From contig JAZQJD010000026.1 in NCBI GenBank assembly GCA_045541435.1, forward strand, positions 164,842 through 228,841: a stretch of DNA of 64,000 nt, in the 5' to 3' direction. Position numbers and translations under genes: made by a program. Source of the stretch: Acutalibacteraceae bacterium. GTDB taxonomy: Bacteria > Bacillota > Clostridia > Oscillospirales > Acutalibacteraceae. Shown here piece by piece: positions 18,227-64,000 of this stretch. Under the pieces are notes generated by a model, which worked only from the letters and a program-made list of their open reading frames with translations, was not told the DNA's origin and did not search any database. Position 1 is the first letter of the stretch, and each line of letters opens with the position of its first letter.

Positions 18227-19090
18227 TTATTCAGCCAATTTATAGTGTCTTAAATAAACACCGACTGTTTTATCATAGTCAAGAACATGGATAAATGTGC
18301 CGTCTTCCATCGGGAATACTGTTACGCCCTCTGCCTCGTTACCTGCCATAGAGGGAAGGGAACGGGTGCAAAGCTCTTTAACAATACCGCTTTCAACATC
18401 AACAGTCATAATCTTATCGTCGTTACTATGCTCAATATCGGAAGAGAGATAAAGAATGCCGTCATAAACCTCGCCGCCTTGAATACGAACAACCTGCTCT
18501 GACAAAGGAATCACATGTGAAAACTCCATTGTATCAAGGTCAAATGCAAGAATTTCATTTACCTCGTTAAACTGTGAGCAATAGAGATATCCGTTTTCGC
18601 CGTCAACGCAGCACCACGGAATACCATCCGGAAGATTATCATTAGGCAATTCGAAAACATCAACAACATGGAGTGTGCGGGAATCATAGGTTATAACAAG
18701 AGGTAAATCCTCTGCTTCATTTTCAACTGCCGCATAGATTTTGCCGTCATAGTAGCTTATTCCGCCTACATGGTCGCTACCATAGTTATCAATATATTCC
18801 TGAGGAATTGGAGAATCATTTTTAACGAGAACCTCCATAGTTTCCGCATTCCATTTTGCAATACTTGTCATACCGAAAGCGGTAAGAGAGCCCGATGTAT
18901 AAAAATATTTACCGTCAGTTGTAACACCCTGTCCCGACTTGAAAGCATCAAGAAAAACAAGCTTATCTTCTCTTACAAGCTCAACCTCGGGGGTGGCTGT
19001 TGCCTCGCCTGAATCCATAACACCTGTGAGAAGCATACAAATAGTAACTAAAATGCTTAAAAAAGCATCAATAATATGTATTCCTGTCAT
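18227..19090 (-). CDS. Hypothetical secreted or membrane-anchored protein (beta-rich)
   Basis: N-terminal signal/TM segment. No recognisable catalytic motifs. Followed by a bidirectional hairpin terminator at 18185-18225. Confidence 0.4.
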   Translation of the reverse strand: MTGIHIIDAFLSILVTICMLLTGVMDSGEATATPEVELVREDKLVFLDAFKSGQGVTTDGKYFYTSGSLTAFGMTSIAKWNAETMEVLVKNDSPIPQEYIDNYGSDHVGGISYYDGKIYAAVENEAEDLPLVITYDSRTLHVVDVFELPNDNLPDGIPWCCVDGENGYLYCSQFNEVNEILAFDLDTMEFSHVIPLSEQVVRIQGGEVYDGILYLSSDIEHSNDDKIMTVDVESGIVKELCTRSLPSMAGNEAEGVTVFPMEDGTFIHVLDYDKTVGVYLRHYKLAE

Positions 19091-30397: not shown

Positions 30398-30496
30398 AAA
30401 ACACCTTACAAAATCATATATAGTCTATTATATTTTATTCTAATTATATCGGTTTGTCAAGGTAACACAATGTATTGAAAAAAAGAAAGCTGTATG

Positions 30497-30700
30497 ATAG
30501 AATAGCTTTGTTATCAGGGGAAACAGGTGAAAATCCTGTACGAGCCCGTCGCCGTGAGGTGCATTATTGTTTTTATTCTACCTGTTGCCGCAAAGCAGGG
30601 ACAAGCCATTGGATTTTTCCGAGAAGGCGAATTAAAACGCACTAAGTCGAAATACCCGTTAACGCTAACTCTTTTAAAGACATTGTCTTGACTGCGAGTG
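30497..30700 (+). ncRNA. Cobalamin (B12) riboswitch
   Basis: GGGAAACAGGTGAAAATCC...GCCCGTCGCCGTGA core, a downstream GCCATTGG...GAGAAGGC segment and an AGTCGAAATACC B12-box-like segment. Located in the 5' leader of a DUF4430/ECF-S operon. Confidence 0.7.
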
Positions 30701-31920: not shown

Positions 31921-32571
31921 TTATACCATTTTTTCTTGTTTGACTTTGTGGTCGATTACGTGTCTTGATTTAAGCTCATTCATTATATCATCAACTGAAA
32001 TACCCATTTCAATCATAAGAACAAGAACATGATACATAAGGTCGGAAATCTCATAAATTGTTTCTGCTTTATCATCTGCTTTACCTGCGATGATAACCTC
32101 AGTACATTCTTCGCCAACCTTTTTGAGAATTTTATCAATCCCCTTTTCAAAAAGGTAGGTTGTATAAGAACCTTCCTTTGGATCAAGCTTTCTGCCCTCA
32201 ATAGTTTCAACAAGGCTCTGAACGCTGAATGCAGGTGATATTTCTTCGTTTTCAAAAACCGTATTGAAGAAGCAGCTTTCCTCGCCTGTGTGACAAGCAG
32301 GACCATCCTTTTTAACTCTTACTGTAAGAGCATCCATATCGCAGTCTGCGGTAATGCTTACAATATGCTGATAGTTTCCGCTTGTTTCACCTTTGAGCCA
32401 AAGCTCCTGCCTTGAACGGCTCCAGAAGCAAGTCCTTTTCTTTTCGAGAGAAATCATAAGGCTTTCCTTATTCATATATGCAAGAGTGAGAACCTCACTT
32501 GTTTCATCATCTACAACTATTGCAGGAATAAGACCTTTTTCATCAAATTTAAGCTTTTCTATATCAAACAT
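31921..32571 (-). CDS. hisIE: Bifunctional phosphoribosyl-AMP cyclohydrolase / phosphoribosyl-ATP pyrophosphatase
   Basis: HisI-like N-terminal half and HisE-like C-terminal half in a 216-aa ORF. Confidence 0.9.
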
Positions 32572-32572
32572 A

Positions 32573-33331
32573 TTATAACCTCACTGTTATGTTATTCTCG
32601 TTAAGAGTTTTCTTTAAATCGTCTATTGTTACTTCGCCATAGTGGAAAATTGATGCCGCAAGACCTGCGCTCACATCGGGAACAGTATTGAACAAATCAA
32701 CAAAATCCTGCTTCCCCCCTGCACCGCCCGATGCAATTACGGGTACATTCACAATATCGCAAACTGCCTTGAGCATTTCGATATCGAAGCCTTTTTTAAC
32801 ACCGTCGGTATCAATAGAGTTTACAACAATTTCACCGGCACCGTTATTCACGCCACGTTTAATCCATTCAAGTGCATCAAGGCCTGTGTTTTCTCTTCCG
32901 CCCTTGGCAAAGACCTTAAACTGTCCGTCAACCCTTTTCACGTCAACTGAAAGAACAACACACTGATCGCCGTATTTTTCAGCTGCTGCATGAATTAAAT
33001 CGGGATTTCTTATAGCACCCGAGTTAACGCTGACTTTATCTGCACCGCATTTTAAAACTCTGTCAAAATCATCGAGAGTATTAATACCGCCGCCAACTGT
33101 TAAAGGTATAAAAACCTTTGAAGCGGTTTGGGTAAGAATATCTGTAAAAAGCTTTCTTCCGTCAGAGGAAGCTGTTATGTCATAGAAAACAAGCTCGTCT
33201 GCTCCGTGAGAGCTGTAATATTCTGCCAACTGAACAGGTGAAGAAATCTCATTTAAATCTTTAAAATTTGTACCTTTAACAACGGTTCCGTTTCTTACAT
33301 CAAGGCATGGAATAATTCTTTTTGTAATCAT
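32573..33331 (-). CDS. hisF: Imidazole glycerol phosphate synthase cyclase subunit
   Basis: RIIPCLDV N-terminus in a 252-aa ORF. Confidence 0.95.
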
Positions 33332-34041
33332 TTTACTGCCTCCAAAGCCTCTCTTATTTTAATTGCGCCTGTGTAATAGGCTTTGCCGATAATTGCTCCG
33401 AAAAGGTTCATTTTATTAAGAGCGATTATATCATCAAGAGTTGAAACTCCGCCCGATGCAATTATATTAACGCTGAACTTTTCCGAAAGCTCTTTATAAA
33501 GCTCTCTGTTAGTACCCTGCATTGCACCGTCCTTGGAAATATCCGTGCAAATAACAGTTGAAACACCGATTTTCTGGAGCTTTTCAAAGAACTCAAATGT
33601 GCCGTATTCGGATTTTTCAACCCAACCTTTAATGGCAACCTTACCGTCTTTTATATCTGCACCAACTGCAATTTTATCACCGTAGGTTGCAACAGCAGTT
33701 TTAAGAAACTCTTCATCAGTTACTGCTGCCGTACCCAAAATAACACGGGTAACTCCTGCATCAAGATAGGCTTTAACGGTTTCCATTGAACGAATACCGC
33801 CACCAACCTCAACATTCAAGGATGTATTTTCAACAAAACTTTTTATTATATCAATATTGGGTGTTCCGCCGTCACGAGCGCCCTCAAGGTCAACTGTGTG
33901 AAGCTCGGTTGCACCTTGACTTTCAAAATCCTTTGCAATTTCAATAGGATTTTCGGAGTAGACTGTTAAATCATTATAGTTACCCTTTAAAAGCCTGACA
34001 GCCTTACCCTCATATAAATCTATTGCGGGAAAAATTTTCAT
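33328..34041 (-). CDS. hisA: ProFAR isomerase
   Basis: IFPAIDL N-terminus in a 237-aa ORF. Confidence 0.9.
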   Translation of the reverse strand: MKIFPAIDLYEGKAVRLLKGNYNDLTVYSENPIEIAKDFESQGATELHTVDLEGARDGGTPNIDIIKSFVENTSLNVEVGGGIRSMETVKAYLDAGVTRVILGTAAVTDEEFLKTAVATYGDKIAVGADIKDGKVAIKGWVEKSEYGTFEFFEKLQKIGVSTVICTDISKDGAMQGTNRELYKELSEKFSVNIIASGGVSTLDDIIALNKMNLFGAIIGKAYYTGAIKIREALEAVK

Positions 34042-34050
34042 TGTATTACC

Positions 34051-34662
34051 TCATATTTCACAGAATGCTTTCAAAATTGAAAGACCTACATCCCCACTCT
34101 TTTCGGGATGGAACTGACAACCAAAAATGTTGCCCTTGCCAACTGCCGCAGTTACAGGAATACCATATTCGGAAGTAGCAATAACGGATTCGTCACAATC
34201 GGTTGCATAATAAGAATGAACAAAATAAACGAAGTCCCCATCATTTATGTATTTGAAAATCGGGCTTTTCTCTCCTACAAAATCAAGAGCATTCCAACCC
34301 ATATGGGGAATGTTAAGGTTTTCGGGAATTTTATTTTCTAAAGGAATCACATTCCCCTTAAGAAAGCCTAAACCCTCATACTCACCATATTCAAAGCCTT
34401 TCTCAAAAAGCAGCTGCATACCAAGGCAAATCCCTAAAAATGGCTTTCCTTTTTCAGCTTCCTCTGTGATAAGCTCAACTAAACCCGATGAACGAAGCTT
34501 TTTAGCCGCATCACCAAATGCACCAACACCGGGAAGAATGATTCTGTCTGCCTCTTTTATTACATTTTCATCACTTGTTACAACTGCTTCAACACCTATT
34601 TTCTTTAATGAGCATTGGAGAGAGAACAAATTACCGACACCATAGTCAATTATTGCAACCAT
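34051..34662 (-). CDS. hisH: Imidazole glycerol phosphate synthase glutamine amidotransferase subunit
   Basis: Class I glutamine amidotransferase motif GICLGMQ. Confidence 0.9.
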   Translation of the reverse strand: MVAIIDYGVGNLFSLQCSLKKIGVEAVVTSDENVIKEADRIILPGVGAFGDAAKKLRSSGLVELITEEAEKGKPFLGICLGMQLLFEKGFEYGEYEGLGFLKGNVIPLENKIPENLNIPHMGWNALDFVGEKSPIFKYINDGDFVYFVHSYYATDCDESVIATSEYGIPVTAAVGKGNIFGCQFHPEKSGDVGLSILKAFCEI

Positions 34663-35249
34663 TATAAAACTCCTTTGGATGAGGGTATCTCATTTTTCAT
34701 TGTTTCGTCAATAGCAACTGCCTTTTTAAGAGTACGGGCAACGGATTTAAATGCACCCTCAATCAAGTGATGAGAGTTAACTCCGTCAAGCTGTTTGATA
34801 TGAAGAGTTATTGCACTATTGAATGCAAATGCCACGAAAAACTCTCTTAAAAGCTCGGTATCAAAATCTCCTACCATTGGTGCAGGAATATTCATATAAT
34901 ACTGAAGATATGCTCTGCCGGAAATATCAACCGCAGAAAGAATGAGAGCTTCATCCATAGGAAGAATTGTGCTTCCGTAGCGATGAATACCTCTTTTATC
35001 GCCTATAGCTTCCTTAAAAGCCTGACCGAGAGCAATTCCGATATCTTCTGTTGTATGGTGTCCGTCAACCCAGATATCACCGCAACATTTAACGGTTAAA
35101 TCAAACCTTGAATGCTTAGCAAAAAGAATAAGCATATGGTCAAAAAAGCCGATACCCGAATCAATATCGCACTGACCTGTTCCGTCAAGGTTAAGCTTTA
35201 CATATATATCTGTTTCTGCAGTTTTTCTTTTAATTTCTGCTATGCGCAT
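34662..35249 (-). CDS. hisB: Imidazoleglycerol-phosphate dehydratase
   Basis: 195-aa IGPD fold with conserved His/Glu residues. Confidence 0.9.
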   Translation of the reverse strand: MRIAEIKRKTAETDIYVKLNLDGTGQCDIDSGIGFFDHMLILFAKHSRFDLTVKCCGDIWVDGHHTTEDIGIALGQAFKEAIGDKRGIHRYGSTILPMDEALILSAVDISGRAYLQYYMNIPAPMVGDFDTELLREFFVAFAFNSAITLHIKQLDGVNSHHLIEGAFKSVARTLKKAVAIDETMKNEIPSSKGVL

Positions 35250-36314
35250 TTAAACTGCCTCCATAATTTCTTTGATTTTTTCAATAAGAATTTGCATTTC
35301 CTCGAGAGTACCGATAGTTATGCGGTTAAAATCCTTAATTCTTTCTTTTGTGAAATGACGAACAAGAACGCCTTTGTCCTTAAGCTTTAAATAAAGCTCT
35401 TCACCATCAATTTTTTCTGACTTTGCAAAAACGAAGTTTGCTTTTGATGGTAACACCTCAAAACCAAGGGCTTCAAGCTCTTTCGTTGTGTAATCTCTTG
35501 TTTCAATAATCTTTTTGCAATTATCTGTATAATAACTCTGAGAATCTATTGCCGCCGCACCTAAAGAAAGAGTAAGGCGGTTTATGTTATAAGGGTTGGT
35601 TGAATAACGAAGCTTGTGCAAATCATTGATAATTTCTTTACTACCGATAGCAAAGCCTAAACGAGCACCCGCCATTGAGCGTGATTTTGAGAATGTTTGA
35701 ACAACTAAAAGGTTATCGTATTTCTTAATAAGATTTACTGCACTTTCTGCACCGAAATCCACATAAGCCTCATCAATTACAACAACATAATCGGGATTTG
35801 ATTTAATAACCTTTTCAATTTCTTCGAGGCTCAGTGCAAGTCCTGTTGGTGCATTGGGGTTTGCAATAAAAACGCCACCGACAACACCGCAGAAATTTTC
35901 GTAATCAATAGAGAAATCCTCTTCCAAGGGAATTTCTGTATAATCAGAGCCGTGAAGATTTGCAAAAACGCTGTAAAAGCCATAGGTTATATCTGCAAAA
36001 TACGACTTTCTGCCGTTGGCACAATATGCCATAAATGCAAAGTTCAGAATATCATCTGAGCCGTTTGCAAGGAAAACATTTTCTGTTTCCACGCCATAAA
36101 GGTCAGCAAGCTTTTTAGTAAGAATTTTACCGTCGGGGTCGGGGTAAAGTCTTAAAAGCTCTGCTTCGCCTTTATTTGCCTGCGCAAGTGTTTCGGGACT
36201 TGGCGGATATGGTGACTCATTAGTATTGAGTTTTATATATTTTTTATCCTGTGGCTGTTCACCGGGAACATAAGCCGCCAGGGAATTATATCTTTCGTCA
36301 AGGAATTTACTCAT
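35250..36314 (-). CDS. hisC: Histidinol-phosphate aminotransferase
   Basis: Start set at MSKFLDERY, where a GGGGGAAGAG RBS lies upstream. The longer ORF in the track runs through the structured intergenic insert. Confidence 0.85.
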   Translation of the reverse strand: MSKFLDERYNSLAAYVPGEQPQDKKYIKLNTNESPYPPSPETLAQANKGEAELLRLYPDPDGKILTKKLADLYGVETENVFLANGSDDILNFAFMAYCANGRKSYFADITYGFYSVFANLHGSDYTEIPLEEDFSIDYENFCGVVGGVFIANPNAPTGLALSLEEIEKVIKSNPDYVVVIDEAYVDFGAESAVNLIKKYDNLLVVQTFSKSRSMAGARLGFAIGSKEIINDLHKLRYSTNPYNINRLTLSLGAAAIDSQSYYTDNCKKIIETRDYTTKELEALGFEVLPSKANFVFAKSEKIDGEELYLKLKDKGVLVRHFTKERIKDFNRITIGTLEEMQILIEKIKEIMEAV

Positions 36315-36332: not shown

Positions 36333-36607
36333 GGGGTGAGTGAAACCGAACCAAATAAGCCTAAAATGTCCGATTTTACGCACCTTTGTAATTTTTTTGT
36401 CTCGTAATACGCCAGTATTACTTCGCCAAAGGAAATCCCAAATGCACGCAAACTCGGGCATTTTAGGTTCTGCGAAGTTTAATACTTGGCAATTTTTTCT
36501 GTAACAAGGCAAAACTCGCAGGAAGGCTTTCTCCTTTCAAGAGTTTTAACGATGTTACAGGGAAAAGTGACTGTATTAAACCTTGTTTGGTTCAGTTTCA
36601 CTCACCC
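36333..36607. repeat. Inverted-repeat-bounded structured element between hisD and hisC
   Basis: 19-20-bp terminal inverted repeats (GGGGTGAGTGAAACCGAACC at 36333-36352 and GGTTCAGTTTCACTCACCC at 36589-36607). Nested internal inverted repeats are also present. Confidence 0.6.
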
Positions 36608-37865
36608 TTATACTTACACTCTTTGCGTGAGCGTGAAGTCCTTCTTCAGTAGCAAAGCGAACCACTTTATCGCCCACCTCTTTAAGAGCTTCTCTGCTGA
36701 AATATGAAAACTGAGTTTTCTTAACAAAATCATCAACTGAAAGAGGGCTTGAAAATCTTGCAGTACCGCTTGTGGGTAATGTGTGGTTAGGACCTGCAAA
36801 ATAGTCACCGAGAGCCTCGGGACAGTTTTTTCCTAGAAACACAGAGCCTGCATTTTTAACATAACCCAAATATTCAAATGGATTATCAACACAGATTTCA
36901 AGGTGCTCCGGAGCTAAAATATTTGAGGTTTCCATAGCTTCAACAAGAGAATCTGTAATAATAATTTTGCCGTTTGTATCAATGGAGCAACGGGCAATTT
37001 CTGCTCTTGGGAGCAAAGGAATCTGAATTTCAAGCTGTTCGCTTACTTTATTTGCAAATTCTTCGCAATCTGTGATAAGAACTGCGGTTGCCATTTTATC
37101 GTGCTCTGCCTGTGAAAGTAAATCTGCCGCAATATGAGCAGGATTGTTTGTTCCGTCAGCAACAACAAGAATTTCACTTGGTCCTGCAATCATATCAATA
37201 TCAACTGTGCCGAAAACCTGCTTTTTAGCTTCTGCAACAAAAGCGTTACCGGGACCAACAATTTTATCAACCTTGGGCACACTTTCTGTTCCGTATGCAA
37301 GAGCAGCAACTGCCTGAGCACCACCGATTTTGAATATTCTGTCAACCCCTGCGATACTTGCAGCCGCAAGAATTACAGGCTTGATTTTACCTTCTTTTGC
37401 AGGTGTTACCATAACAATTTCAGAGCAACCTGCAATTTTAGCGGGAACGCAGTTCATAAGAACTGATGATGGGTAAGAAGCTGTACCACCGGGAACATAA
37501 AGACCAACCTTTTCAATGGGTAACACCTTCTGACCGATTATAACCCCAGCATTATCGTTTATAACAAAGGAGTTGCGAACCTGCCTTGAATGGAAAGCGG
37601 TAATATTCTCTTTAGCCTGCTTTAAGATTTCGATAAGTTCAGCATCGACTTGATTTAAAGCAGCTTCAATTTCTTCTTTGGTTACTTCAATAACATCATC
37701 AACCGCACCATCGAATTTCTTGCTGTATTCAACAAGAGCTTTATCGCCGTTTTCACGGACATTTTTTATTATATCAGCAACAATACCCTCAACATCAATG
37801 GTCTGCTCGCTTCTTTCAAGAATTTCTTCTGTTGAGATTTCGCTACGCTTGTATATTTTAATCAC
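36576..37865 (-). CDS. hisD: Histidinol dehydrogenase
   Basis: 429-aa ORF with full-length HisD similarity. Confidence 0.95.
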
Positions 37866-39454
37866 TGTTTTTCCCTCACAATTTCGTCTAATGAAGCTTT
37901 AAGTTTATCTATAATTTCAGATTTAAATTTATAGCTTGCTTTGTTTGAAATAAGCCTTGCGCTTATTGCCACAATAGTTTCTTTAGGCTCAAGACCGTTT
38001 TCAAGAAGAGTTGCACCTGTTTCAACAATATCGACAATAACATCGGAAAGGCCAAGAATGGGTGCAATTTCGATGGAGCCGTTAAGCTTTATAATATCAA
38101 TATCACGGCATTTATCTGCATAATAGCTTTTTGCAATATTGGTAAACTTTGTTGCAACTCTCAAGGTGCTTGTGCCGTTATCGGTAAACTCTTTTTTACC
38201 TGCAACACACATTCTGCATTTGCCCATATCCAAATCAAGAAGCTCATAAACATCGGGAGCATATTCAAGAAGAATATCCTTACCTGCAACGCCTATATCT
38301 GCCGCACCACGTTCAACATAAATTGCAACGTCAGAGGGCTTAACCCAGAAATAGCGAACCTTTTTCTCCGCATTTTCAAAGATAAGTCGGCGGTTTTTCT
38401 CGTGAATCTGAGGGCATTCAAACCCTGCACTTTCAAACATAGAATAAACCTTTTCACCCAGTCTTCCTTTAGGAAGAGCCACATTAAGCCAACCGTCGTC
38501 TGCAGTTTCTTCAACTTCTTCCTTATTTTCAAGAAGTCGGTCAACTTCATCAAGATAAACCGCAAAGCCGATTGCACCGGCTTTTTTATTAACTCGTTCC
38601 ATAAGCTTATCATATCTTCCGCCGGAAAGAACACTTGCGGGAACACCGTGAATAAAGCCTTTGAAAGCAATTCCGTTATAATAGTTCATATCATTAACCA
38701 ATGAACAATCAATATTGATATTATCTTCATAGCCTGCACCAATAAGCTTTTCACAAACCTTTGAAAGCTCGTTGAATGCATTCTGCATTTCGGAATTGAC
38801 AGCAACCGCACCGATTTTTTTGAGAACCTCAGAGGGCTTACCGCAGGCATTAACGATTTCGAGAAGCATATTAACAAGTGCTTCACCGATACCAAAGCTT
38901 TCGCAAAGTGTTTTTATAGCACCTGCATTTTTCTCTGCAATAGCAGAAAGTATCTCTGCTTTATTGCTCTCATTGAGCTCCATAGCATTAAAAATACCGC
39001 TTAAAAGACCTAAATGAGAAATATCAAGAACATAATTTTCGCTTATGGCATAAAGACTGCGGGCGGCAAGAATAATAACATCGCAAACATCGTTATCGGT
39101 AATGTCACCCATACATTCAATACCCGTTTGCATAATCTCACTGAAGCCACCTGCTTTTTTACTTTCACGGTAAACATTTTCATTGTAATAAACCTTTTGA
39201 ACTCCTTTAACGGAATCGTCAAGGTTTTTGATAATTGAAAAAGTTACGTCAGGCTTGAGAGCAAGGAGTCTGCCGTCTGTATCGGTAAAGGTAATACAAT
39301 TACCGCTTACAAGGAAGTCCTTGTTACTGCCATATAAATCATATTCCTCAAACTTGCTCATTTTGAAAGGCTTATAACCGAACTTTGTATAAAGAGAACG
39401 AAGCTCGAATATAATTCTTTCGGTGGGATTGAGAACAGAAGCATCAAAACTCAT
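37862..39454 (-). CDS. hisZG: Fused ATP phosphoribosyltransferase: HisZ regulatory subunit (N) plus HisG short form (C)
   Basis: The first ~315 aa are HisRS-paralog-like (HisZ). The last ~210 aa are HisG-short (LNVALPKGRL...). Read as a single uninterrupted ORF. Confidence 0.8.
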   Translation of the reverse strand: MSFDASVLNPTERIIFELRSLYTKFGYKPFKMSKFEEYDLYGSNKDFLVSGNCITFTDTDGRLLALKPDVTFSIIKNLDDSVKGVQKVYYNENVYRESKKAGGFSEIMQTGIECMGDITDNDVCDVIILAARSLYAISENYVLDISHLGLLSGIFNAMELNESNKAEILSAIAEKNAGAIKTLCESFGIGEALVNMLLEIVNACGKPSEVLKKIGAVAVNSEMQNAFNELSKVCEKLIGAGYEDNINIDCSLVNDMNYYNGIAFKGFIHGVPASVLSGGRYDKLMERVNKKAGAIGFAVYLDEVDRLLENKEEVEETADDGWLNVALPKGRLGEKVYSMFESAGFECPQIHEKNRRLIFENAEKKVRYFWVKPSDVAIYVERGAADIGVAGKDILLEYAPDVYELLDLDMGKCRMCVAGKKEFTDNGTSTLRVATKFTNIAKSYYADKCRDIDIIKLNGSIEIAPILGLSDVIVDIVETGATLLENGLEPKETIVAISARLISNKASYKFKSEIIDKLKASLDEIVREKQ

Positions 39455-39747
39455 TTTTCTTCTCCCCCTTTGAGCTTTTCGATTATCTTTTTATAACCAC
39501 CGTTACCATAGGAAAGGCAACGGTTAACCCTGCCGATTGTAGCAGAGCTTGCACCTGTTTCAGCAGTAATAGTTGAAAAGGTTTTACCCTCGTCAAGCTT
39601 CTTGGCAACACTAAGGCGTTGAGAAAGGGAAACAATTTCATTAATGGTGCATAAGTCCTCAAAAAACAAAGCACATTCCTCTTCATTTTCGAGGCTTAAT
39701 ATTGCTCTGTAAAGCTCGGTAACATCATTATTTTTTAAAGGTGTCAT
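39451..39747 (-). CDS. YerC/YecD-family TrpR-like DNA-binding protein (candidate his operon regulator)
   Basis: 98-aa TrpR-like HTH. Overlaps the hisZG start by 4 nt. First gene of the his transcription unit. Confidence 0.8.
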   Translation of the reverse strand: MTPLKNNDVTELYRAILSLENEEECALFFEDLCTINEIVSLSQRLSVAKKLDEGKTFSTITAETGASSATIGRVNRCLSYGNGGYKKIIEKLKGGEEK

Positions 39748-39962
39748 ATCTAAGACCTACGGCATTTTCTTAAAAGAAAAGCCCTTCCTTTCTGAAAAGT
39801 CTCATTTTTAAAAACGTGTTCATATGGTAGCACACTAAAGTGCTAAAGTCAATAGTCAAACACCATTATTTTTTCTGAAATTGAAATTTGTTAAAATGAA
39901 TAAAAACACTTGAAAAAATCAAGGGTTTTATATATAATACTAATTGCATTTTTAATATTTTT

Positions 39963-40038
39963 GCTGGAATAGCTCAGTTGGTAGAGCAGCTCATTCGTAA
40001 TGAGCAGGTCGCGTGTTCGAGTCACGTTTCCAGCTCCA
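39963..40038 (+). tRNA. tRNA-Thr (anticodon CGU)
   Basis: Cloverleaf folds by hand. 7-bp acceptor stem, D and T arms, anticodon loop TTCGTAA, and an encoded CCA. Confidence 0.9.
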
Positions 40039-40068
40039 AAAAAGACAGTCCTCGGACTGTCTTTTTTT
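40039..40068 (+). terminator. Rho-independent terminator after tRNA-Thr
   Basis: GACAGTCC-TCG-GACTGTC hairpin followed by TTTTTTT. Confidence 0.8.
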
Positions 40069-40071
40069 ATC

Positions 40072-40240
40072 CATTGCGAAAGCAATGGTATATCATCACA
40101 CTTTAGTGTGTATATCATCGCCAAAGGCGTATATCATCAACCACAGGTTGCATAATCTTTCGCAATGATGATATACAAAGCGTTGCTTTGGTGATATGCA
40201 ATTTCTGCAAAATTGATGATATACACACCTACGGTGTGAT
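40072..40240. repeat. Iteron-like array of 9-mer TATATCATC boxes, each beside a short hairpin
   Basis: Direct boxes at 40089, 40111 and 40130, with a degenerate fourth at ~40151. Exact inverted boxes GATGATATA at 40167 and 40215, plus a variant GTGATATGC near 40191. Each box abuts a different 4-6-bp-stem hairpin. Confidence 0.6.
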
Positions 40241-40475
40241 TTTTCTTACAAGAACTCAATGCAAGAATCCTGAACGAGCTCATTGAGAAAATTGTGGTAT
40301 CAGAAAAGGAAATTATAGACGGTGAAAAATATCAATGCGTGCATATATACTACAAGTTCGTAGGGTTGATGAGTATATAAAAAGAAGCTGATAAAATCAG
40401 CTCCTTGTTTATAAATTTATATATTGCTTTTATTTCAAAACAAAAAATTGTTTTGCACTTATTTTTTGTATAAAT

Positions 40476-41180
40476 TTAAACTTCTTCTGCTTCGTTCTTT
40501 TCGTTTTCAGCACCAAGAAAATCAATTTCGCCATTTTTATAAGCTTTTATAATTTTATTTAAAAGACTCCTTTTCAAAAAAACACTCTCAACCCAAAATC
40601 TTACAAATCTCCATTTTATGCCTTCTTCAGAAAACATCTTATAACTAGGTCTATTTATCTTTTTGGTAATATGTTTATCTATTCGCTTTTGCCACTTTTG
40701 AATATCTCCAATTAGCATCAAACCTACAAATTCATAGTTTGTTTCTCCAGTTTCATTCATAAATAATAGCAAGCACAATGTATATCTGTTCATAGCATAT
40801 AGATATGCTGATGTTGTTAAATCAAGATACCTTTCATGTTCTTCTCTACAATTTTGTATACCATCTAAAAATTCAATAAAAGTCTCCCTGCTTTCCATAA
40901 TTTCAGGATAATAAATATTATTAGAAAAAGTAGCATCCTCTGGCGTCTCTATATCATCACCAAACGAAAATATATCGATCGCAGCCGCTTTTAATTCCAC
41001 CTTTTTTACTTCTTCATACGCAGAAAAAATTTTTTCTCCCAATTTTTCTCTATAATTGATTTTTGTTTGTTTTTTTATTTTATGTAATTCAGCGATATGT
41101 GTAAGCAAAGCAGTAATTACAATAATTATCACTTTTTCTACTATGTCTTCTGTAAAAAAATCTTTTATAAGTTCAATCAT
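40476..41180 (-). CDS. Hypothetical protein (island cargo, no recognisable domain)
   Basis: 234-aa ORF. Second gene of a two-gene unit between the tRNA-Thr and its duplicated 3' end. Confidence 0.4.
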   Translation of the reverse strand: MIELIKDFFTEDIVEKVIIIVITALLTHIAELHKIKKQTKINYREKLGEKIFSAYEEVKKVELKAAAIDIFSFGDDIETPEDATFSNNIYYPEIMESRETFIEFLDGIQNCREEHERYLDLTTSAYLYAMNRYTLCLLLFMNETGETNYEFVGLMLIGDIQKWQKRIDKHITKKINRPSYKMFSEEGIKWRFVRFWVESVFLKRSLLNKIIKAYKNGEIDFLGAENEKNEAEEV

Positions 41181-41186
41181 ACTTAT

Positions 41187-41801
41187 TCACCTCAACTTAA
41201 CCTTAATTTCCGGACCAAAATTGAGTGGCTCAAAATCATCGTTAACTTCCCACAAATAACTATACAAATACAAGATATGTGTAGCATTGGATGGGTCGGT
41301 TTTGTATTGGCGATAATTAGCACAACTTGTCCAGAATTGTTCTGCAGTAAATCGTTCGGGAAGTGCTGATATAACTCTTGAAAAAGCTTCAACTTGTTCA
41401 TCCGAGAGCTTCATCCATACACTATTAACTGAAGGATTCGGCAAATCAGGTGCACTATCGAATTTCTGTTTAAGTTTTGGATTTTCAGCAAAGACTGTTT
41501 CAATGGATTGAAGGACATCATCTGCAACAAGTTTGCACCATTGTGCATCTACGAACTCACAACCATTGCTTGGTTTCATTTTTGCAGAAAATCCTTTTTT
41601 CAATATAATCCAATCACTAAGATGGTCACCTTTTTTCCATGATATTCCGTTATATGAGTAATCTTCATCTGCATATTTAGGGAAAACACCTACAACTTTC
41701 CAATAGCCTGAACTATATTGGGTAACCCAATCACCAACTTTAAAGGTTGAATATGTGTCATTTGTTTTTTCTTTCTTGTGGAATATATCAAACAAACCCA
41801 T
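41187..41801 (-). CDS. Hypothetical protein (island cargo, no recognisable domain)
   Basis: 204-aa ORF. A 6-nt gap separates it from the downstream ORF. Confidence 0.4.
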   Translation of the reverse strand: MGLFDIFHKKEKTNDTYSTFKVGDWVTQYSSGYWKVVGVFPKYADEDYSYNGISWKKGDHLSDWIILKKGFSAKMKPSNGCEFVDAQWCKLVADDVLQSIETVFAENPKLKQKFDSAPDLPNPSVNSVWMKLSDEQVEAFSRVISALPERFTAEQFWTSCANYRQYKTDPSNATHILYLYSYLWEVNDDFEPLNFGPEIKVKLR

Positions 41802-41896: not shown

Positions 41897-41930
41897 CAGG
41901 TCGCGTGTTCGAGTCCCGTTTCCAGCTACA
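41897..41930 (+). repeat. Duplicated 3' portion of tRNA-Thr (attR-like direct repeat)
   Basis: CAGGTCGCGTGTTCGAGTCcCGTTTCCAGCT matches tRNA positions 40008-40038 at 30 of 31 nt. Followed by the hairpin terminator CCGCACACGAAAGTGTACGGG plus T-run. Confidence 0.75.
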
Positions 41931-42085
41931 AAAATGCCGCACACGAAAGTGTACGGGATTTTTACTTATTCACTAATAATATTGATATTAAAATCTTAAA
42001 TATTTCTTAAGATTCTATCGATTTGTTGTTTTCTGTTCTTTTTACTGCTAAAATTGTGATATAGCAAGCTGAAAGGAGCGGTTTT

Positions 42086-60382: not shown

Positions 60383-60465
60383 CCTCCTTTAATTTATCAT
60401 AATAATATTATATCACAAATCCGTTCTAAGTCAATAGAATTTCTTGCACTTTACTAAATATCAAT

Positions 60466-63765: not shown

Positions 63766-64000
63766 CAAACGAAATGGTCAAGCCCTCGACCTATTAGTAC
63801 TGCTTAGCTGAACACGTCACCGTGCTTACACACGCAGCCTATCAACCTCATAGTCCATAAGGGGTCTTACTAACTTAAGTTATGGGAAATCTAATCTTGG
63901 AGATGGCTTCACGCTTAGATGCTTTCAGCGTTTATCCAATCCGCACATAGCTACTCGGCCGTGCCACTGGCGTGACAACCGATGCACCAGCGGTGCGTCC
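63766..64000 (-). rRNA. rrl: 23S rRNA, 3' end (partial, runs off the window)
   Basis: The reverse complement contains the conserved domain-VI sequence GGATAAACGCTGAAAGCATCTAAGCGTGAAGCC and the GTACTAATAGGTCGAGGGCTTGACC 3' terminus. Confidence 0.85.

Follow-up and report, generated by a model that had tools for sequence, protein, structure and literature searches.

A predicted HisR operator overlaps the promoter of a hisR-led histidine operon in Acutalibacteraceae

The DNA analysed here is a stretch of 64,000 nucleotides from an Acutalibacteraceae bacterium (contig JAZQJD010000026.1, positions 164,842 to 228,841), called the window throughout. Its minus strand carries a complete nine-gene histidine operon in the order hisR-(ZG)-D-C-B-H-A-F-(IE), which reaches down to position 31921 and is led by hisR, a small gene of the yerC/yecD type. 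The subject of the present study is the promoter region of this operon, which is predicted to be controlled by the product of the leading gene. Neighbouring his genes are separated by gaps of 0-10 nt or overlap, with the sole exception of hisD and hisC, between which an insert is located. The stop codon of hisR (TGA, 39453-39451) and the start codon of the fused his(ZG) gene (ATG, 39454-39452) share the sequence ATGA. The same succession of hisR and his(ZG) is found in all close relatives, and thus HisR is associated with the genes of histidine biosynthesis.

The 98-residue protein matches PF01371 (Trp_repressor; 3.6e-27, 94.7 bits, cut-off 27) and, more specifically, the YerC/YecD family TIGR02531 (8.4e-35, 119.1 bits, cut-off 42.2, model positions 2-88 of 88). 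Its nearest solved structures are PDB 3FRW, 3KOR and 3G1C (E ~1e-27), the last of which is a HisR according to Ashniev et al. (2022, BMC Genomics 23:558; PMC9413887). That study gave the name HisR to the YerC orthologues, including YerC of B. subtilis, and described their regulons in 395 Firmicutes genomes. The hallmarks listed there are the equivalents of TrpR Ala80, Thr81 and Arg84 in the recognition helix and an acidic helix 2 with five Glu and one Asp. Both are present in the window protein, the former as A-T-x-x-R (SATIGRV), the latter as the acidic run LENEEECALFFEDLCTINE. The family assignment, which is unambiguous, identifies the gene as hisR, which in Firmicutes encodes the histidine-responsive repressor of the TrpR family. 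The first-pass annotation of this DNA had proposed that a TrpR-like YerC/YecD gene heads the his operon and overlaps hisZG, and that its product is a TrpR-family histidine repressor. The two family matches and the ATGA overlap uphold the former proposal, and the latter agrees with the HisR family as described in PMC9413887.

The published HisR box is a 20-bp palindrome with the consensus cacTTTAnnnnnnTAAAgtg, and the HisR of R. gnavus bound to its box only in the presence of L-histidine, as measured by fluorescence polarisation (PMC9413887). A symmetrised weight matrix was built from 158 published Eubacteriales HisR sites (training sites: median 16.0 bits, 5th percentile 8.95) and used to scan the whole window, and the chance level of matches was derived from 200 random 64-kb sequences of the same dinucleotide make-up. 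The top match in the window is TATGGTAGCACACTAAAGTG at 39823-39842 with 18.0 bits, followed by the next unrelated match with 11.6 bits; in the random sequences, matches that reach 18 bits had a frequency of 0.02 per sequence. This primary box is located 76-95 nt upstream of the hisR ATG, inside the 215-bp spacer 5' of hisR, and thus falls within the range of -350 to +50 from the his or hisR start that was used in the published site search (PMC9413887), with a score within the range of accepted sites. It is nearly identical to the published his-operon sites of Blautia producta (tatggtagcacgctaaagtg) and E. ramulus (catggtagcacactaaagtg), with further similarity to the sites of C. leptum and Clostridium sp. 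SN17. A secondary box, tied for second best in the window, is located 8 bp further upstream. The other top matches in the window are AT-rich or intragenic and were treated as false positives, including one at 60390 that precedes a gene for a BspA-type leucine-rich repeat surface protein and two, at 18527 and 18555, inside an open reading frame.

The stretch that contains the two boxes also contains a sigma-70-type promoter on the minus strand, with the -35 hexamer TTGACT at 39852-39847 and an extended -10 element, TGcTACCAT, whose hexamer spans 39829-39824. Because of this layout, the -35 hexamer is overlapped by the upstream box, which contributes the extra half-site GACTTTAG there, and the -10 hexamer by the primary box. 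The promoter stretch is very probably an autoregulatory HisR operator composed of two overlapping boxes. HisR dimers carrying L-histidine as co-repressor would bind to this composite operator over the core promoter of hisR-his(ZG)DCBHAF(IE), with the primary box covering the -10 region and the second box adding a half-site over the -35 region. Bound HisR would exclude RNA polymerase from the promoter, from which transcription would start near 39817, and therefore histidine would shut off the biosynthetic genes together with the repressor gene, resulting in negative feedback and autoregulation. We assign a probability of roughly 85% to this reading, in which HisR with histidine occludes the promoter and thereby represses all nine genes of the operon, its own among them. 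What is established here comprises the protein family, the layout of the operon, and the site match together with its conservation. The histidine-dependent DNA binding of the window HisR is taken by analogy from the measurement on the R. gnavus orthologue, and the second box would be occupied by a second dimer.

The conservation of the stretch was analysed across relatives. A scan of species-representative genomes yielded 80 loci, 54 of which had usable upstream DNA, so that 55 promoters including that of the window could be aligned; the HisR proteins of the 54 loci are 72-98% identical, and nearly all of the genomes are labelled as Acutalibacteraceae metagenome-assembled genomes. The primary box is kept in all 55 promoters (15.0-22.1 bits), as is the extra half-site GACTTTA. 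The conserved block extends from TTGAC via TACYAT, both of which are invariant or nearly so, to about ATGAACACG, whereas the sequence 5' of the -35 hexamer is not conserved, most of the leader and the flanks vary freely, and the distance from the box to the ATG ranges from 67 to 153 nt. It could be argued that the block is merely a strong promoter to which no repressor binds, and that the operon is controlled elsewhere or not at all. Indeed, 12 of the conserved positions belong to the -35 and -10 hexamers. However, the 17-nt spacer, which a promoter leaves unconstrained, is nearly invariant and spells TTTAGCRCTTTAGYGTG, the block fits an independently derived site model at the low chance level given above, and a repressor gene is encoded directly behind it. 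In addition, Rfam searches of the window and of 39700-40450 revealed no RNA leader element: neither the T-box (RF00230) nor the His leader (RF00514) yielded a match, whether at gathering score across the window or at E <= 5 within 39700-40450. Control by a promoter alone is thus improbable, although it is the best of the alternatives.

It should be noted that several points weigh against HisR-mediated occlusion of this promoter. All 55 loci come from one clade, which limits the independence of the evidence from conservation. Measured against the general consensus, TACCATA, the right half of the primary box, makes a poor half-site, and because it doubles as the -10 hexamer, its conservation is partly promoter-driven. 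Lastly, two residues of the recognition region of the window HisR are unusual: a Phe replaces a conserved Tyr, and the helix reads ATIGRV, not ATISRV (Gly for Ser).

Table 1. Features of the hisR-his locus and its surroundings (window coordinates)
Feature	Position	Strand or orientation	Description	Basis or remark
hisR (yerC/yecD-type)	39451-39747	minus	98 aa; leading cistron of the operon	PF01371 and TIGR02531
his(ZG) fusion	37862-39454	minus	530 aa	PF13393 and PF01634; TIGR00443 and TIGR00070
hisD	36576-37865	minus		Pfam match
hisC	35250-36314	minus		Pfam match
hisB	34662-35249	minus		Pfam match
hisH	34051-34662	minus		Pfam match
hisA	33328-34041	minus		Pfam match
hisF	32573-33331	minus		Pfam match
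hisIE	31921-32571	minus		Pfam match
Primary 20-bp HisR box (predicted)	39823-39842	palindromic	minus strand CACTTTAGTGTGCTACCATA	top matrix match; overlaps -10 hexamer
Secondary HisR box (predicted)	39831-39850		8 bp upstream; minus strand GACTTTAGCACTTTAGTGTG	11.6 bits, tied second best in window
Sigma-70-type promoter of the hisR-his operon	39824-39852	minus	TTGACT, 17-nt spacer, TGcTACCAT	consensus scan
Dyad TAGCAC-N6-GTGCTA	39828-39845	palindromic	TAGCACACTAAAGTGCTA	read from the sequence; single copy in window
hisR 5' leader	39748-39792	minus	GAAAGGA 39792-39786; hairpin 39783-39761; ~13 unpaired nt; ATG	
tRNA-Thr(CGU)	39963-40038	divergent from hisR	own promoter	
Array hairpin	40097-40110	plus	CACACTTTAGTGTG	contains the shared 12-mer; outside the HisR system
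Array-family copies	40066-40246 (window)			also in loci L004, L014, L016, L018, L024, L038, L041, L043, L051 and L081-L146

The arrangement of the two boxes in the window, the 11.6-bit box being located at -8 relative to the primary box, resembles a pattern seen in other hisR promoters. In a phasing test on 17 hisR promoters (about 13 of them independent; L057-L080), the scores at each offset were compared with those of randomised flanks while the primary site was kept. Extra half-sites were enriched at two offsets, +8 with a mean excess of 10.7 bits (t = 7.0) and +16 with one of 12.7 bits (t = 4.5), and at no other offset in the 17 promoters. The 8-bp pattern can also be read by eye in published alignments of Clostridium, Butyrivibrio and Eubacterium (PMC9413887, Additional file 5), for example, in C. 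sporogenes (gATAAACT ATAAAACT ATAAAAGT), Butyrivibrio (aACTTTAG TTCTTTAT) and C. propionicum (CTAAAGTG GTAAACTG), although that paper treats single 20-bp boxes and mentions neither tandem HisR sites nor extra half-sites in 8-bp phase. The phasing of the extra half-sites thus suggests one point that adds to current knowledge. By analogy to TrpR, HisR operators might be arrays of yACTTTAG-type half-sites with a period of 8 bp, to which two or three dimers bind side by side, a proposal that we regard as tentative, at somewhat less than even odds. In the window, such tandem dimers would extend over the promoter between -35 and about +1.

The TrpR of E. coli and HisR share the fold and a helix-turn-helix that depends on a co-repressor, and the HisR operator predicted here would resemble that of TrpR in its position over the core promoter, in the autoregulation of the repressor gene and in half-sites that recur every 8 bp. 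TrpR reportedly binds as tandem dimers 8 bp apart to the trp, aroH and trpR operators, work that is attributed to Kumamoto et al. in 1987 and to Lawson and Carey in 1993. The two systems differ in the ligand, which is histidine for HisR and tryptophan for TrpR, in the half-site, which is yACTTTA in contrast to GNACT, and in the distance between the half centres, which is 10 bp in the HisR box and 8 bp in that of TrpR; in addition, tandem occupancy is a putative trait in the case of HisR.

The offset of the two boxes also accounts for the feature that had first drawn attention to the promoter, namely the perfect dyad TAGCAC-N6-GTGCTA, which the first-pass annotation had taken for the operator of the YerC-like protein. 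The dyad is composed of positions 6-11 of the upstream box (39845-39840, TAGCAC) and positions 10-15 of the downstream box (39833-39828, GTGCTA), with exactly 6 nt between them. In the palindromic consensus CACTTTAGCATGCTAAAGTG, positions 6-11 (TAGCAT) and 10-15 (ATGCTA) are mutually reverse complementary, and therefore any two boxes that are 8 bp out of register automatically generate a 6-N6-6 dyad. Judging from this geometry, the perfect dyad is a by-product of two overlapping HisR boxes. Its centre (39836.5) is 4 bp away from that of the primary box (39832.5), and 20-mers in the register of the dyad score -19 to -38 bits with the HisR model.

An operator centred on the 18-bp dyad itself would be attractive because the dyad is perfect, unique in the window and located between the -35 and -10 hexamers, yet it has a slightly smaller chance of being true than a mere promoter. 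Apart from the negative scores, perfect 6-N6-6 dyads are common, as the window contains 46 of them compared with 26.5 +/- 5.4 in shuffled sequences, and this one is already predicted by two HisR boxes at an 8-bp offset. Moreover, no more than 22 of the 55 promoters have perfect arms, while 23 have one mismatch and 10 have two, and the changes are always one-sided: the variant arms TAGCGC, TACCGC, TAACGC and TAGTGC are never matched by a compensating change in the other arm. In one locus (L054) the right arm is GTGGTAAAGTA, a change by which the dyad is disrupted further but the HisR score increases to 22.1 bits; therefore, selection acts on the HisR box, not on the dyad. Conservation of the dyad upstream of the his operons of relatives had been suggested as a check, and its outcome is divided: perfect copies exist in 22 promoters, but the remainder carry uncompensated changes, in contrast to the universally kept HisR box. 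Thus, the earlier prediction of an autoregulatory operator in the hisR promoter is supported for this stretch of DNA, which contains the conserved 18.0-bit box, and the dyad was correctly described in sequence and place, but not as the recognition element.

If transcription began further upstream, the dyad could alternatively act as an RNA hairpin, serving as an attenuator or a stability element, and a weaker promoter-like match, TTAACA-18-AATAAT at 39894-39865, would be a candidate for such a start; this role is very improbable, as that match is conserved in the closest relatives only, the arms lack compensatory changes, the stem comprises just 6 bp and is not followed by a U-run, and the hairpin matches no Rfam family. 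A start at TTAACA-18-AATAAT carrying the dyad as RNA was rejected for the first of these reasons.

A structure of a different kind is located downstream of the promoter, in the hisR leader. In 53 of the 55 loci, per-locus folding revealed a hairpin that starts 0-3 nt past a conserved GAAAGGA (median z -2.4) and that has a variable, co-varying sequence, with a median of 12 unpaired nt between the hairpin and the ATG. In the two loci that lack the hairpin, the distance between GAAAGGA and the ATG is 7-13 nt. Past the hairpin, GGT or GGTGA is present in many loci, and therefore GAAAGGA and the piece behind the hairpin together resemble AGAAAGGAGGTGA. This suggests that the leader contains a Shine-Dalgarno sequence that is bridged by a hairpin, as is reportedly the case for gene 38 of phage T4. 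Rfam searches of the leader and of the array described below (gathering score, E <= 5) found nothing besides the tRNA.

On the other side of the divergent tRNA-Thr gene, directly past its terminator, an array at about 40066-40246 shares a 12-mer, CACACTAAAGTG, with the operator. The 12-mer has exactly two copies in the window, at 39831-39842 (plus strand) and at 40099-40110 (minus strand), and therefore the array hairpin that contains it is located at 40097-40110. The first-pass annotation had noticed the shared 12-mer, which is real, but had placed the hairpin 3 nt off, at 40100-40113; it had also considered such a match at this distance improbable by chance and had raised the possibility that the array titrates, or is bound by, the same regulator. 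The identity could be viewed as support for binding of HisR to the array, because the exact 12-mer is present at these two sites only, and three matches with at most one mismatch were found in the window compared with 0.21 expected. The third of these matches, with one mismatch, is CACACGAAAGTG at 41940-41951, in an apparent old tRNA terminator. However, chance alone would yield about 3.4 positions per 64 kb at which inverted 12-mers pair within 300 nt, and therefore a single coincidence of this type is unremarkable. The window in fact holds 47 such positions, which merge to 16 distinct pairs, mostly terminator hairpins, so that the argument from improbability does not hold.

Binding or titration of HisR by the array has as little probability as the RNA hairpin, and the evidence against it is of several kinds. 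A HisR target requires two inverted half-sites, TTTA-N6-TAAA, and the array hairpin does not have this arrangement: it has one CACTTTA half-site with a single TTTA, the partner is absent at the required spacing, and its top HisR score is -1.06 bits. The array is part of the mobile island described below, and its hairpin is one of many variants with compensating stems. No more than about a dozen of the 55 related loci carry the array, in contrast to the operator, which all of them have, and in 12 related loci that have both, the 12-mer identity is kept in two. In array-bearing loci CGCTTTAG(T/C)GTG is a frequent form of the operator, although the hairpin remains CACACTTTAGTGTG, and the variants of the two do not co-vary. 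The hairpin loop is TTCA in L014, and the hairpin module is absent from L037. A scan of metagenome contigs with an exact pattern revealed 66 further copies of the array family, few of which are near a tRNA-Thr gene, and neither hisR nor the operator was found beside any of them within the contig DNA examined. The 12-mer link between array and operator is, on all of these comparisons, a coincidence.

The array itself belongs to a dispersed modular family of gut and rumen metagenomes. Its copies have a common order: a conserved hairpin (CCATTGCGAAAGCAATGG) is followed by two to four units, each consisting of TATATCATC and a short hairpin, then by a central CTTTCGCAAT and finally by two to four units in which a short hairpin accompanies GATGATATA. 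The stems show compensatory changes, the number of units varies, the first hairpin occurs in at least 24 sequence variants, and the RNA fold has a z of -7.5. The copies are often followed by a -10-like box and by a Shine-Dalgarno motif and ATG. The array has no family match in Rfam, and its core had no match in viral contigs; a match to Gut-1 of 23 bits (gathering score 50) on the strand opposite to the array was dismissed. Pairing of TATATCATC with GATGATATA as consistent helices was considered and rejected, as the variant 9-mers, judged by eye, show no consistent compensation. The array may be a structured RNA, a single-stranded DNA site or a protein-binding array.

The array is located within an island of 1.9 kb that is bounded by the 3' end of the tRNA-Thr gene (40005-40042) and its 38-nt direct repeat (41897-41934), behind which an apparent former tRNA terminator follows. 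As far as sequence can tell, these borders are the signature of an element integrated into a tRNA gene. Relatives have partial tRNA repeats at other distances, and therefore the tRNA gene is a recurrent integration site. The island also contains a C-terminal coding remnant at about 40262-40382, ending in ...ELNARILNELIEKIVVSEKEIIDGEKYQCVHIYYKFVGLMSI*, which we take, from its sequence pattern and with no database match behind it, to be that of a large serine recombinase, and two minus-strand open reading frames (40476-41180 and 41187-41801) that have no Pfam matches.

Some features elsewhere in the window should be mentioned. The insert between hisD and hisC (36335-36606, about 272 bp) has terminal inverted repeats of 22-26 nt (GGTGAGTGAAACTGAACCAAA / TTTGGTTCGGTTTCACTCACC), folds to -116.5 kcal/mol (z = -8.9), has no Rfam match and rewrites the final codons of hisD. 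It is absent from six close relatives, in which only a few nt separate the hisD stop from the hisC ATG, and it looks like a miniature inverted-repeat transposable element within the his transcript. Just past the his operon, a cobalamin riboswitch is located (30480-30673, plus strand, 48.8 bits), and the edge of the window contains the 3' end of a 23S rRNA gene (63774-64000, minus strand).

Compared with the known HisR regulon of Firmicutes, the window has the same protein family (PF01371/TIGR02531), the same 20-bp box with near-identical sites and the same targets, that is, the his operon and hisR, and, according to the tested orthologue, it would have L-histidine as the co-repressor. In the published Ruminococcaceae and Oscillospiraceae, however, hisR is a separate target apart from the his operon, whereas here and in the 55 genomes of the Acutalibacteraceae clade it leads the operon as its first cistron, with an overlap into the fused his(ZG) gene. 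Operons led by hisR have been reported from other lineages: in Peptococcaceae (hisR-hisZ), Negativicutes, some Thermoanaerobacteraceae and most HisR-bearing Proteobacteria, hisR either directly precedes the his operon or is part of it, and the operon of Carboxydothermus hydrogenoformans is hisRZGDCBHAF(IE) (PMC9413887). These operons likewise have hisR immediately 5' of or inside the his operon and a HisR box in front, so that one site controls both the regulator and the pathway, and they differ from the present one, in which hisZ is fused to hisG and ATGA is common to the stop of hisR and the start of his(ZG). The HisZ-HisG fusion is kept throughout the clade, and such a fusion has already been listed for Faecalibacterium, Oscillibacter, Intestinibacillus and E. 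coprostanoligenes (PMC9413887).

The window is thus a new lineage example of a known regulator-operator pair, and because the literature already covers the regulator, its box and his operons led by hisR, the main result is a correct annotation. The locus is also a case in which a striking dyad and a shared 12-mer are both by-products, the former of overlapping sites and the latter of a mobile element that landed alongside. If the proposed arrays of half-sites are real, the tandem-binding mechanism of TrpR would extend to HisR, and better site models would become possible. For the Acutalibacteraceae clade, the finding means that the whole histidine pathway and its own repressor are run from one promoter that is putatively occluded by HisR.

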